Shown piece after piece: positions 2,626 to 52,341 of a DNA stretch of 64,000 bases; position 1 is the first letter of the stretch, and the number at the start of each line of letters is the position of its first letter. Under the pieces are notes generated by a model. It saw only the letters and a list, made by a program, of their open reading frames with translations. It was not told where the DNA came from and made no database searches. The translations under genes were made by a program, and so were the position numbers. The DNA comes from an uncultured Gemmatimonadales bacterium (lineage in GTDB: Bacteria; Gemmatimonadota; Gemmatimonadetes; Gemmatimonadales; Gemmatimonadaceae), in assembly GCA_963851265.1 (NCBI GenBank), contig CAWKNZ010000002.1:992001-1056000 (forward strand), written 5' to 3'.

Positions 2626-3064
2626 GCGCCGCGCGGCGGCGCTCGCCCTCGGCGCCGTCACGGTGTTAGGCGCCGCGGCCGCCTGCGGTCCCTCGGGGCC
2701 GCCGGCGCTCCGCGCGTGGACGGACGCGTACGAGTTCCGCATCACCGCGGACCCGTCGCCGCCGCACGCGCGCGAGGCGACGCTCTACCACATCGTCGTG
2801 CTCGACAAGAAGTCGCACCAGGTGATCGACCGCGGCGAGGGCCAGATCTTCGCCACCAGCCAGGACCACGCGAACGTGTACGACTCGTTCACCCCCGCCC
2901 CGGAAGCGGGGACGTACACGGCGCGCCTGAACTTCATCACCGCCGGCGACTGGCACGAGGCCGTCCGGTTCCGCCGCGACTCGACCGCGAAGCTCGAGAA
3001 GACCGACGACTGGGTGCAGACCGTCTACGGCGCGCGCCCGATCGGCGAGCGCCCGATCCAGTAG
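2603..3064 (+). CDS. Hypothetical lipoprotein (YtkA/FixH-like beta domain possible)
   Basis: Basic N-terminus, hydrophobic stretch and lipobox-like AAAC; GTYTARLNFITAGDW resembles Ig-like YtkA segments. Confidence 0.7.
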   Translation: MRTPSRTERRAAALALGAVTVLGAAAACGPSGPPALRAWTDAYEFRITADPSPPHAREATLYHIVVLDKKSHQVIDRGEGQIFATSQDHANVYDSFTPAPEAGTYTARLNFITAGDWHEAVRFRRDSTAKLEKTDDWVQTVYGARPIGERPIQ

Positions 3065-3101
3065 GCCGGCACCACCGACCCGCCAATTTCGTTTCAGCGT
3101 C

Positions 3102-3395
3102 ATGCGCCATTTCCACCGCACGAGCGGGCCGCCGGACGGCGTTCTTCGGAACGCCGACGCGTTCTTTGCGGCGCTCGGCCTGTCCGCCACGAACGTCGCA
3201 CCGCGCGGTCGCGACTACGCCGGCCCACTCGGCGCGATGCGCATCGCGGTGCGGATGGAGGGCGGACACTACACGCTGGTCGAGGTCTACACCGACCAGA
3301 TGGGGGAGAGCCGGCTCGACAAGAACGTGAAGAAGTTCTTCGTCTCGCTCCACCGCGCTGCGGACGCGCGGCACGCGCTCAAGTCGGGCTTCTGA
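3102..3395 (+). CDS. Hypothetical protein (97 aa)
   Basis: Fills the gap between flanking + genes, has normal composition, and ends 8 nt before E1-alpha. Confidence 0.75.
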   Translation: MRHFHRTSGPPDGVLRNADAFFAALGLSATNVAPRGRDYAGPLGAMRIAVRMEGGHYTLVEVYTDQMGESRLDKNVKKFFVSLHRAADARHALKSGF

Positions 3396-3403
3396 CCGGG
3401 CCC

Positions 3404-49123: not shown

Positions 49124-50325
49124 ACACGGCGACTCTCGCCAGCGCCGACGCGCCGGCATATCGCGCGCGCATCGCGCGCGGCATTTCGGTTTCCGGCGTC
49201 GCGCACGCGTGCGTCATCGTGGGCGCGGTCCTCGTTGCGCGCGCGCATCCGGCACGCACGGTCCCACCCGTCTACCGGGTGTCGCTAGTCGCCGCACCGG
49301 CGGGGGGCCGCGGCGCCCGAATCGCAACGGGCGCGACCGCACCCGCACGAGACGTCACCGCGCGGAACTCCGGGACGGCGATCGCGGCGCCCACGGCGCC
49401 CGACCTGGCGGGAGCGCGGCCGAAGGCGGCGACCGCGACGCCGCACTCGCTCATCGCGGAGCCGAAGGCCGCGGTGCGGCCGAGTACACCGCACCCTGGA
49501 ACGCATCCGACGTCGGCCGCGCACCCGCTCGGGGCGGCTCCGCACGTGCCGGCGCCGTCGCTCGCGCCGTCGCACGGAGCTCGTACACCGGCTCCGAACT
49601 TGGCGGCGTCGCACGCGTCCTCGGCGCGCATCGCTCCGTCGCGCGCGCCGGCAACGCCCGAACGACCTGCTCCGGCGCCCACCGCGCCCCCTCGGTACGT
49701 GGCCGCGACTCCGCGCGCGACGCACGCGGCGCCGTCACTGCCGCACACGAGCCCTGCGCCGTCGATTAAGCCCGCGTCGCGACCGAGCGCGTCGACTGCA
49801 TCGAGCGCGTCGACCTCGCGCGACGCGTCGACTCGTACGCGACGGGCTGTCGCGAGTTCGGCAACGTCGGAGACGCCCGAGGAGAACTCCGGATCGCGCG
49901 GGGCCACGTCGTCCCGCGCGGCACCCGCGCCGCAGACCGCGGCCCACCCCGCGGGCTCCGGCACCGAACATGGGGCGGGTACGGCAGCGGCCCGCGGACA
50001 CGACGTCGCCGACGCCCGCGTCGTCGGACTCGAGTTTCCGTATCCGGGGTACCTCGCGAACCTCGTGCGGCAGGTGCGGCTTCGCTTCGCGCCGTCGGAG
50101 GCGCGTGCCGGACTTCACGCCGACCTCGCTTTCATCGTCGCCCGCGACGGGTCGATCACTGACATCCGCGTCGTGCGAAGCTCGGGCAACTACGCGTTCG
50201 ACCTCGAAGCGCAGGGCGCCGTCGAGGCCGCGGGGTCCGCGCGCGCCTTCGGTCCGCTCCCCGACGCGTTCCGACCGTCCTCGCTTCCCGTGAATTTCAG
50301 CTTCGATCCGCGCACCGCCCCGTGA
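49120..50325 (+). CDS. TolA/TonB-like energy transducer
   Basis: N-terminal TM helix with S-x3-H, long Pro/Ala/Ser/Thr linker, TonB_C-like domain (SSGNYAFD). Confidence 0.8.
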   Translation: MNTATLASADAPAYRARIARGISVSGVAHACVIVGAVLVARAHPARTVPPVYRVSLVAAPAGGRGARIATGATAPARDVTARNSGTAIAAPTAPDLAGARPKAATATPHSLIAEPKAAVRPSTPHPGTHPTSAAHPLGAAPHVPAPSLAPSHGARTPAPNLAASHASSARIAPSRAPATPERPAPAPTAPPRYVAATPRATHAAPSLPHTSPAPSIKPASRPSASTASSASTSRDASTRTRRAVASSATSETPEENSGSRGATSSRAAPAPQTAAHPAGSGTEHGAGTAAARGHDVADARVVGLEFPYPGYLANLVRQVRLRFAPSEARAGLHADLAFIVARDGSITDIRVVRSSGNYAFDLEAQGAVEAAGSARAFGPLPDAFRPSSLPVNFSFDPRTAP

Positions 50326-51647
50326 CGTCCGACGTTCCCTCGATCGCGCGCCGCGGCCGGCGCTACGCCCGCGCACTCGGGGCGTCGGTCTCGCTGTGCG
50401 CCGCCTTCCGCGCAGCCGCACAGGACACCACGACCACGCCCGCGGGCGTGAGTGTGCGCCTCGCGTACGACGCGCGGACGCGCCCCACCATTCTCGTCCC
50501 TCGTGTCGCCGGCCCCGGCGGCGACTCGCTCACCGCGATGCTGCGTCGTGACCTGACGTACGGCGGTCGTGTGGTCGTCGCACCGTCGGCTGCCGCGGAC
50601 GCGGGCGGCGGCGTGGCAAATGTGGACTACGCAGCGGCGGCCCGCGCCGGCGCAGCGGGGATAGTTCGGGCGACCGTCGCCGGCAACCTGCTCCACCTCG
50701 TCCTGGCCGACGTGAGCGCCGGTCGCGTCACCGCGACGCGCGACGTCACGCTTCCCGCGAACACGCTCGGTCCAGAGTGGCGACTCGCGGTCCACTCGGC
50801 GGCGGACGAAGCGGAGCGTTGGGCGACGGGCGTGCGCGGGATCGCCGCGACTCGCGTGCTGTTCGTGCGGGCCGGGCGGGTGTGGAGCGTCGACGCCGAC
50901 GGCGAAAACGTCCGCCCGCTCACCCCGTCGGGCGCGCTTTCGCCCGCCTGGGTGCCGTCGGGGCGCGGCATCGTCCACGGCACGCTCGACGCTGACGGGG
51001 CGCAGCGAATCGTCGCGCGCGCGTACGACGGCGCGACCGCCGGCCCGCCACGCACGATCGCGTCCGGCGGCGTGCTGAATCTCACGCCGGCCGTGTCGCC
51101 GGACGGCGCGACTGTCGCGTACGCGCACGGCGAGGAGGACGGTACCGACCTATACGTGGTCGGCATCGACGGCGGCGGCGCGCGTCGCATCACCGTCGGG
51201 CGCGGGACGGACAACGTGTCGCCCGCGTACTCGCCCGACGGGCGGCGCATCGTGTTCACGTCAGGCCGTTCCGGACACCCCGAGGTGTATATTGCCGACG
51301 CGGACGGGACGAATGCGGAGCTGCTCACCGACTTCGATTTCTCGCCCCGGAACTACCGCTCCAACCCGAGTTGGTCGCCCGACGGCCGCCTCGTCGCGTT
51401 CCAGTCGCTGATCGGCGGCCGTTTCCAGCTCTGCACGATCGAGGTGCGTGGGCGATCGGCGCGCTGTCTCTCGACCGCGGATCGCACCGAGGATCCGTCG
51501 TGGGCGCCCGATTCCCGCCACCTCGTCGCGACCGTCAGTCAGGGCGCGCCGCGTCTCGTCGTGCTCGACGTTGAGACCGGTCAGTCACGTACGCTCGTCG
51601 GCGGGCGCGCGCCTCGCATGCCCGCGTGGTCGCCGCCCCTGCGCTGA
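50322..51647 (+). CDS. tolB: TolB beta-propeller protein
   Basis: PD40 repeats (SPAYSPDG, PSWSPDG, PSWAPD); lies upstream of pal. Confidence 0.88.
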   Translation: MTSDVPSIARRGRRYARALGASVSLCAAFRAAAQDTTTTPAGVSVRLAYDARTRPTILVPRVAGPGGDSLTAMLRRDLTYGGRVVVAPSAAADAGGGVANVDYAAAARAGAAGIVRATVAGNLLHLVLADVSAGRVTATRDVTLPANTLGPEWRLAVHSAADEAERWATGVRGIAATRVLFVRAGRVWSVDADGENVRPLTPSGALSPAWVPSGRGIVHGTLDADGAQRIVARAYDGATAGPPRTIASGGVLNLTPAVSPDGATVAYAHGEEDGTDLYVVGIDGGGARRITVGRGTDNVSPAYSPDGRRIVFTSGRSGHPEVYIADADGTNAELLTDFDFSPRNYRSNPSWSPDGRLVAFQSLIGGRFQLCTIEVRGRSARCLSTADRTEDPSWAPDSRHLVATVSQGAPRLVVLDVETGQSRTLVGGRAPRMPAWSPPLR

Positions 51648-51699
51648 GCGCGCTACGCACCCTGTTCCGGCGCGGACGCGCCAGCCTTTTCCCGCCTGC

Positions 51700-52341
51700 A
51701 TGACGACGTTCACCCCGCGGCCTCGCGTCGCGCTGTTCACCGTACTCGCCCTCGTCAGTGCAGGGGCGTGTCATCATGCCAAGCCGACAGCCGGCGCGCC
51801 GAGTCCCACGCCGGACGGCCCATCGGCGGCGCAACTCGACAGCATCGCCCGGGCGCGGGCGCGCGACTCGCTCGACGCCGCGCAGCGCGCGCGCGCCGCG
51901 CGAGACTCGGCCGCGGAAGCGCGCCGCCGCGCCAGCGCGCGGCAGGGTGCGGTCGACAGCGCCGTCGCGTCGAGGCGCTCGGTGCTGCTCGCGCCCGTGT
52001 ATTTCGATTACGACCAGTCGGAGCTGCGCGACGACACGCGGGCAGCGCTCGAGGCGAAGCTCGCCATCCTCTCGCAGATCCCCGACCTCCGCGTGCGCGT
52101 GGCGGGGCACACGGACGACCGCGGCGCGGACGAGTACAACCTTGCGTTAGGCGGACGGCGCGCGGCCGCCGTGAAGCGGTTCTTCGCCGAGCGCGGCATC
52201 GGCCCGGAGCGGATCACCGTCGTGAGCTTCGGGAAGGAGCGTCCGACCTGCGAGACGGACGACGAGTCGTGTTGGGGCCGGAACCGGCGCGCGGAATTTT
52301 CGGTCGTGCGCGGCGGCGCGACGTTGGGCACCGAGCAATGA
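51700..52341 (+). CDS. pal: Peptidoglycan-associated lipoprotein
   Basis: Lipobox AGAC, VYFDYD, GHTDDRG..EYNLALG, SFGKERP, NRRAEF. Confidence 0.93.
   Translation: MTTFTPRPRVALFTVLALVSAGACHHAKPTAGAPSPTPDGPSAAQLDSIARARARDSLDAAQRARAARDSAAEARRRASARQGAVDSAVASRRSVLLAPVYFDYDQSELRDDTRAALEAKLAILSQIPDLRVRVAGHTDDRGADEYNLALGGRRAAAVKRFFAERGIGPERITVVSFGKERPTCETDDESCWGRNRRAEFSVVRGGATLGTEQ

Follow-up and report, generated by a model that had tools for sequence, protein, structure and literature searches.

Why is one heptamer, GTTAGGC, written again and again into the core genes of a GC-rich bacterium, mostly through TTA, a leucine codon that is rare in them? The question was raised by a 64-kb stretch (C2:992001-1056000, the window) of the 4.60-Mb, 12-contig genome of an uncultured Gemmatimonadales bacterium (G000, ~73% GC), in which GTTAGGC occurs in 13 exact copies versus 2.23 ± 1.50 after dinucleotide shuffling, with none of 100 shuffles reaching 13. 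The initial annotation of the window had expected about half as many copies from base composition; chance gives about a sixth. Its broader proposal, a lineage-specific chromosomal signal maintained within coding DNA, was supported by the genome counts, codon context, occupancy, orthologue retention and family distribution described below. Only a few lineages are known to carry a genomic word in such excess, the examples being the DNA uptake sequences (DUS), the uptake signal sequences (USS) and the highly iterated palindrome HIP1, and the upkeep of high bacterial GC is an open question.

A word under selection and its surroundings

With 1,762 copies in G000, versus 96 expected under an order-2 Markov model, GTTAGGC ranked first of the 16,384 7-mers. 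CGTTAGGC was seen 1,396 times versus 8.7 expected with the word masked, and its single-mismatch variants mostly occurred at 1–5 times expectation. In the 3,635 genes, called with our own dicodon model so that gene-level counts are approximate, 1,289 copies were found versus 61–86 in 10 within-gene synonymous shuffles and 468–500 in 10 dipeptide-class shuffles. Hence, the over-representation survived both codon- and dipeptide-preserving shuffling. The suspicion that codon context gives the word away was also borne out: TTA accounted for 17.4% of the leucine codons in NNG-Leu-GGC versus ~0.2% in other contexts, NNG-TTA-GGC made up three quarters of the in-gene copies, and 996 of the 1,276 in-frame TTA codons of the genome fell within the word. 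Copies were also located in spacers and over stop codons, the word covering 83 of 727 TAG and 119 of 423 TAA stops.

(C>T)GTTAGGC is a signal read as double-stranded DNA, filled equally on both gene strands and without polarity. C-preceded opportunities were filled in 782/2870 cases on the coding strand (Leu-Gly frame) and in 172/641 on the opposite strand (Pro-Asn frame, CCT-AAC). Occupancy was 0.10 after T and 0.03–0.05 after purines, T following the word was avoided, and A or T at position −2 was 2–4 times commoner at filled sites. Genome-wide, 885 and 877 copies lay on the two strands, and occupancy toward and away from dif was 0.178 and 0.175, so the 10:3 strand bias of the window reflects gene orientation only, the confounder that the initial annotation had pointed out. 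In orthologues from two congeners (83–85% protein identity), 34 of 77 sites were retained in G001 and 46 of 78 in G004, versus 5–14% for other rare codons, and the turnover took the form of codon substitution. The word was rarer in atypical genes (19/159 versus 432/1275).

The sites keep apart from each other. Only 46 gaps shorter than 200 bp were observed versus 125 ± 9 in 500 permutations of filled sites among the opportunities. The close-pair ratio was 0.24–0.64 from 30 to 300 bp in all orientations, the deficit faded by 800 bp, and the depletion recurred in G001, G002, G004 and G012.

Around each site a halo of low A/T content was detected at synonymous third positions. The observed/expected ratio in G000 was 0.70 ± 0.02 at 12–80 bp, 0.85 at 80–150 bp, 0.92 at 150–250 bp and 0.99 at 250–400 bp; in the nearest interval it reached 0.63 ± 0.04 in G004 and 0.82 ± 0.04 in G001. 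The halo was symmetric, lay on both strands, involved all codon families, transitions and transversions, was present at gene ends (0.93 with a site versus 1.20 without) and slightly shifted amino-acid use. Neither near-matches nor empty opportunities had such a halo, nor did TTA codons outside the motif or runs of A/T-rich codons. A/T compensation was rejected as its cause. The halo goes with whichever lineage holds the site: at sites held by G000 only, A/T was 0.061 in G000 (0.083 where neither genome has a site) and 0.052 in G001 (0.056), and at sites held by G004 only it was 0.032 in G004 (0.062) and 0.081 in G000 (0.083). Permissive segments would not explain this pattern, because a GC-favouring force should erode TTA. 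C-to-G and G-to-C divergence near shared sites was slightly low (0.95–0.98 versus 0.99–1.03, in non-independent pairs); a reduction of only ~4% does not tell protection, repair and GC-biased conversion apart. Altogether, the word GTTAGGC is real, is under selection as DNA and leaves a footprint around its copies. As a separate observation, synonymous A/T was twice as high in the congener G002 (L134-L137, L204-L216), the word was filled more often and a halo was lacking; GC pressure may have relaxed there recently.

Occurrence in relatives, phages and integrons

Among named relatives, those with the best match to the SecA of G000 were Gemmatimonadaceae. In a family tally made by hand count, in which kin are not independent and the unpublished G011, G367 and G507 appear as single rows on which no claim rests, 77 of 251 genomes (24 of 68 genera) had 100 or more CGTTAGGC per Mb, with up to ~1,350, 11 had 29–96 and 163 had fewer than ~25. 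The distribution was bimodal, and in one single-gene tree rich genomes were scattered among poor ones. Across a sample of the class only 3 of 301 genomes reached 100 CGTTAGGC per Mb, all of them in this family; two genomes of a sister family exceeded 200 GTTAGGC per Mb. Many of the matches listed for poor genomes formed one-strand arrays ~500 bp apart, i.e., integron attC sites, and no other dialect words were evident in 80 kb of each of four poor genomes. The plasmid search found no Gemmatimonadota record. In the literature searched (titles and the beginnings of abstracts, most subscription papers lying outside), no report of the word in bacteria was found; the text of bioRxiv 2021.09.08.459516 did not contain it, and the occurrence in an excerpt of PMC9808626 is an irrelevant adapter.

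The word is carried by phages as well. Among 112 viral loci chosen for two nearby copies, and judged after removal of those two, four were clearly word-rich; a third pattern contributed 24 further loci but no new rich one. The contig G532 (L323) held 55 copies in 45.6 kb, with TTA in 12 of 22 NNG-Leu-GGC contexts versus 5 of 414 elsewhere, and the nearest named relatives of its terminase were from Gemmatimonadaceae; L451 held 25 copies in 13.6 kb. Fifteen more distant relatives of the L323 terminase were word-poor, 14 of these at 32–35% GC, and terminase PF03237 was not found in five rich genomes. L313 (G531) and L444, contigs of temperate and Mu-like phages that encode Verrucomicrobiota-like proteins, used TCGTTAGGC (12/13 and 17/21 copies) at ~470–1,100 per Mb, and the claim of a second phylum rests on these two. 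Among side observations, L323, L451 and L305 were word-rich tailed-phage contigs in which TTA is forced in the Leu-Gly context, and the AT-rich viral contigs L430:5562-6505 and L450:9797-10310 carried a tandem GC-rich repeat with GCCGTTAGGCGC at a period of ~70–110 bp.

The resemblance to the integron core consensus, pointed out in the initial annotation, proved stronger than stated there. In this order, the two arms of attC have the sequences CGTTAGGC/TGTTAGGC and show the flank preferences of the word; CGTTAGGC formed 16 of 19 predicted right arms, a tally that counts some sites twice. Broad-range attC primers likewise end in CGTTAGSC and TGTTAGVC, according to an excerpt of PMC2669170. G000 itself carries an integron at C6:900-6050, with intI interrupted by ~2 kb and three attC-like sites, and a second group of four attC-like pairs at C10:188900-203800. 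The word thus shares with the attC R box (core GTTRRRY) the same 8-mer and the same flank preference; unlike attC, its copies are solo and double-stranded, without a partner arm or hairpin, and their abundance is independent of intI. Two arms 50–150 bp apart that fold into a hairpin after a cassette open reading frame define an attC site; only eight such pairs occurred among the 1,762 word copies.

A possible nucleoid protein and the rival explanations

Tentatively, we favor the prediction that the word is the site of a sequence-specific intracellular chromosome-binding (nucleoid) protein. Such a protein would bind (C/T)GTTAGGC inside the cell and occupy or influence ~100–250 bp on each side, and the bound patch would suffer or fix fewer G/C-to-A/T changes. 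If one site per patch suffices, new sites, which need G/C-to-A/T changes, would rarely arise beside old ones. In MatP/matS, SlmA with its SlmA-binding sites, Noc with its Noc-binding sites and ParB/parS, the sites are palindromic and number in the tens. The word resembles them in its orientation-independent sites, in regional depletion (at parAB, in genus g1) and in an array upstream of a small DNA-binding-like gene; it differs in its 1,762 copies, in its asymmetry and in a candidate protein without a Pfam, PHROG or PDB match.

This candidate, found among small basic proteins, is a 129-aa protein (G000:C4:24564-24953, minus strand) with a 60-residue head, 90–97% identical within the genus, and a histone-H1-like Ala/Lys tail. 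Judging by sequence motifs, we take the head to be ribbon-helix-helix-like, and two relatives seem to resemble ribbon-helix-helix proteins in the same way. Relatives found among 1.84 billion representatives numbered 23. At its locus (L481, G000:C4:24564-25120), the 200 bp upstream hold seven copies or near-copies of the word, the next best of the 3,635 genes having three: four CGTTGGGC and one TGTTAGGC, followed close to the start by two CGTTAGGA in inverted arrangement. The array is kept in five genomes of two genera (g1 and g159), with 6–7 copies in G001, G003 and G004 and six in G338, often 11–13 bp apart. Such an arrangement would be expected of autoregulation or of strict control by the reader. 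Scoring of 96 first-look candidates in each genome recovered the gene from 7 of 38 word-rich genomes, belonging to three genera, and from 0 of 27 word-poor ones; it occurred in all four rich and neither of the two poor members of genus g166, and also in G419. The C4 protein is a candidate, either a putative reader in three genera or the product of a gene under the reader's control. Word arrays at five other loci were rejected as slippage repeats or as lacking such an adjoining gene.

None of the other potential readers (IntI, XerD, AddAB, the methyltransferase-helicase pair described below, other methyltransferases, NucS and the FimT-like pilin) followed the word level, and the co-occurrence with integrase, methylase or AddAB genes that the initial annotation had suggested looking for was not seen for any of the three. 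A protein with a helix-turn-helix-like domain and an Ala/Lys/Arg tail (C3:194320-194802) was rejected as well: it was found in 7 of 24 rich genomes and, weakly, in one poor genome, and it has no promoter copies. That protein is conserved in the genus and has three identical-scoring relatives in G338. Because base composition shifts measurably around the word, sister genera differ naturally in having it, and a candidate protein can be named, two questions become directly testable in abundant soil bacteria: what reads the word, and whether a bound protein or local recombination raises GC.

Several findings weigh against a nucleoid protein. The identity of the word with the attC R box is left unexplained. 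No halo was detected in G002 (0.96 ± 0.03, 201 sites) or G012 (1.00 ± 0.02, 221 sites), it was weak in G008 (38 sites), and no 10–11 bp periodicity was seen within it. Under the same scoring, 31 of the 38 rich genomes, including the densest (G012) and several that are 99–100% complete, did not yield the candidate gene. The g166 homologues have no tail and one and zero promoter copies, and slippage makes tandem word arrays elsewhere too, some of them inside genes. Finally, G012 has no gap in the word at parAB.

That gap belongs to the relation of the word to chromosome landmarks. The longest stretch of G000 free of the word (45 kb, C1:182876-227962) spans mnmG-parA-parB-mnmE, and a second (C1:2107-17073) covers dnaA-dnaN. 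Genes of the parAB region were under-filled in three congeners (2/25 in G001 and 3/31 in G004). General exclusion of the word from the origin was nevertheless rejected in view of G012, leaving a genus-level lead only. A canonical parS was not found in G000, and G012 has a perfect parS beside parAB. The dif site was located at C2:1368952, where gene orientation flips; it is conserved in G001, G004 and G012. GGGCAGGG, which we take to be a word of the KOPS type (FtsK-orienting polar sequences), was oriented to dif 40:6. GTTAGGC showed no such polarity (occupancy 241/1357 versus 140/802), and XerD was rejected as its reader on the ground that the XerD arm of dif differs from the word. Like Chi (read by RecBCD/AddAB) and KOPS (read by FtsK), the word is non-palindromic and kept in coding DNA as an octamer; unlike them, it is not polarised to dif and its halo is symmetric. 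The directionality and leading-strand bias typical of Chi were not seen, and the AddAB nuclease family was not found in two very rich genomes. Of the roles offered in the initial annotation, segregation (KOPS/dif) is rejected, Chi-type recombination is unlikely, no matching enzyme was found for methylation, and nucleoid-protein binding and uptake both remain as candidates.

Uptake, quite possible in our judgement, would make the word a transformation tag like DUS and USS. Fragments bearing the word would be favoured in uptake, or in recombination over short tracts of a few hundred bp; this drive would spread the word, a nearby second copy would add little, and A/T would be purged by GC-biased conversion or better selection. 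DUS (Neisseriaceae, receptor ComP) and USS (Pasteurellaceae, for which part of PMC12616744 gives ComN/PpdA as the predicted receptor) likewise occur in hundreds to thousands of copies that are non-palindromic, show no strand preference, are imposed on coding sequences and stay in place. Conserved position and rarity in atypical genes, as an excerpt of PMC2397512 reports for DUS, apply here too. The machinery is in place: ComEC, DprA and pilins were found, among them an orphan FimT-like minor pilin (G000:C7:452372-452797) that ends in GRVR, of the GRxR form, is conserved across the order and probably serves Gemmatimonadales as a DNA receptor in natural transformation. Carriage by a related tailed phage also fits, because temperate phage HP1 has 17 USS cores in 32 kb. 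An attC-tuned receptor would supply the origin of the word, transformation being described as shuffling cassettes (PMC12614218, in part), and HIP1 is reported to raise transformation (bioRxiv 2024.09.10.611283). If the word is an uptake tag, it is the first outside Proteobacteria found in the literature searched.

Other data speak against a tag. Inverted close pairs were not enriched (six opposite-strand pairs closer than 50 bp among 1,750 gaps), unlike the terminators of DUS, and the flanks were slightly less, not more, divergent, in contrast to the excerpt of PMC2397512. The 8-bp word is on or off between sister genera. The competence genes ComEC, DprA and FimT were present in rich and poor genomes alike. 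FimT, the one pilin compared as a receptor, occurred in 39 of 43 genomes with no residue separating rich from poor, and it was not found in word-rich G008. A core that is also found in phages from a second phylum would mark self DNA poorly, and the promoter array has no role in uptake.

A wider form of the nucleoid-protein reading appears doubtful. It proposes a chromatin-positioning code in which a small sequence-specific protein binds the attC-R-box-identical word every 0.7–6 kb and locally lowers G/C-to-A/T change; Gemmatimonadaceae and Chthoniobacterales of soils would share this protein or have re-invented it, and their phages would have followed. If this were true, a DNA word would shape the mutation landscape and the GC content of host genes.

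We consider it rather improbable that the word is a modification site directing mismatch repair, as in Elhai's model for HIP1. There, newly formed sites maintain themselves and mutations in the vicinity of established ones disappear, so that both the spacing and the halo would follow with no further function needed. A penultimate A, as is typical for type IIG/IIL enzymes, occurs in GCCTAAC; motifs of MutS and MutL were detected, and an Eco57I-type adenine methyltransferase adjoins a DrmD-like SNF2 helicase at G000:C7:579717-585511 (L082). The methyltransferase, however, occurred in 40 of 41 relatives at any word level, its tree followed taxonomy and no residue marked rich genomes. A C5 methyltransferase was found in none of five rich genomes, PF01555 was not found in G000 or G001, nor NucS in G000, and C-to-G and G-to-C divergence drops far less than A/T content. 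Under the model, mutations newly arisen close to a site already in place should indeed be lost (PMC4390886, in part). For HIP1 (GCGATCGC, cyanobacteria), roles in chromosome structure, repair and transformation have been proposed in parts of PMC5861425 and PMC4390886. The two words are alike as hyper-abundant octamers under DNA-level selection whose reader is not known; GTTAGGC differs in not being palindromic, in that no cognate methyltransferase was found, and in the 300-bp exclusion and GC halo measured here. The L082 pair itself looks like a domesticated pair resembling DISARM (defence island system associated with restriction-modification).

That the copies are footprints or targets of an integron integrase (attG-type events) has very little probability and is largely refuted, despite the match of attC arms and primers (PMC2669170, in part) to the word and the interrupted intI and attC sites on C6. 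IntI scored over the cut-off in 25 of 41 genomes, unrelated to word level, and word-rich G008 has only two tyrosine recombinases. Eight attC-like pairs were found among the 1,762 copies, none in the window, and solo sites showed no hairpin excess; orthologues differ by codon substitution, and footprints would not be retained. A translational effect, with rare TTA used for regulation or Leu-Gly favoured as a codon pair, could draw on the predominance of NNG-TTA-GGC, but is refuted by the equal occupancy as CCT-AAC on the non-coding strand, with copies in stops and spacers and the presence of tRNA-Leu(UAA), and has practically no probability left.

Copies in the window

Exact search recovered the 13 copies at the positions given in the initial annotation, 10 on the plus and three on the minus strand. 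A recount gave 20 TTAG/CTAA tetramers, 13 of them within the heptamer. Nine copies are in-frame NNG-TTA-GGC, supplying more than half of the in-frame TTA codons as had been claimed (9 of 15 in called genes); three lie over stop codons and one is intergenic. The gene names aspA, smpB, gmd, secA, rel, tsaE and pal agreed with NCBIfam matches, gmd at 0.7 bit below the cut-off; for the PHP and epimerase genes related families were matched, with scores below the cut-off.

The in-frame copies, all on the plus strand, begin in a small putative lipoprotein gene (2665..2671, Val-Leu-Gly with TTA) and a small membrane protein gene (5653..5659, Pro-Leu-Gly). They continue in aspA (13284..13290), gmd (23984..23990), secA (36124..36130 and 37603..37609), rel of the RelA/SpoT type (40390..40396), tsaE (44446..44452) and pal (52146..52152). 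The word covers the TAG stop of smpB (16927..16933, plus strand) and the TAA stops of the PHP-family phosphoesterase gene (8611..8617, minus strand) and the NAD-dependent epimerase gene (47959..47965, minus strand). The intergenic copy upstream of rpmJ (20041..20047, minus strand) has a weak flank, with A before the word. Among other short words of G000, avoidance under the order-2 Markov model was strongest for CTAG (4-mers) and CGATCG (6-mers).

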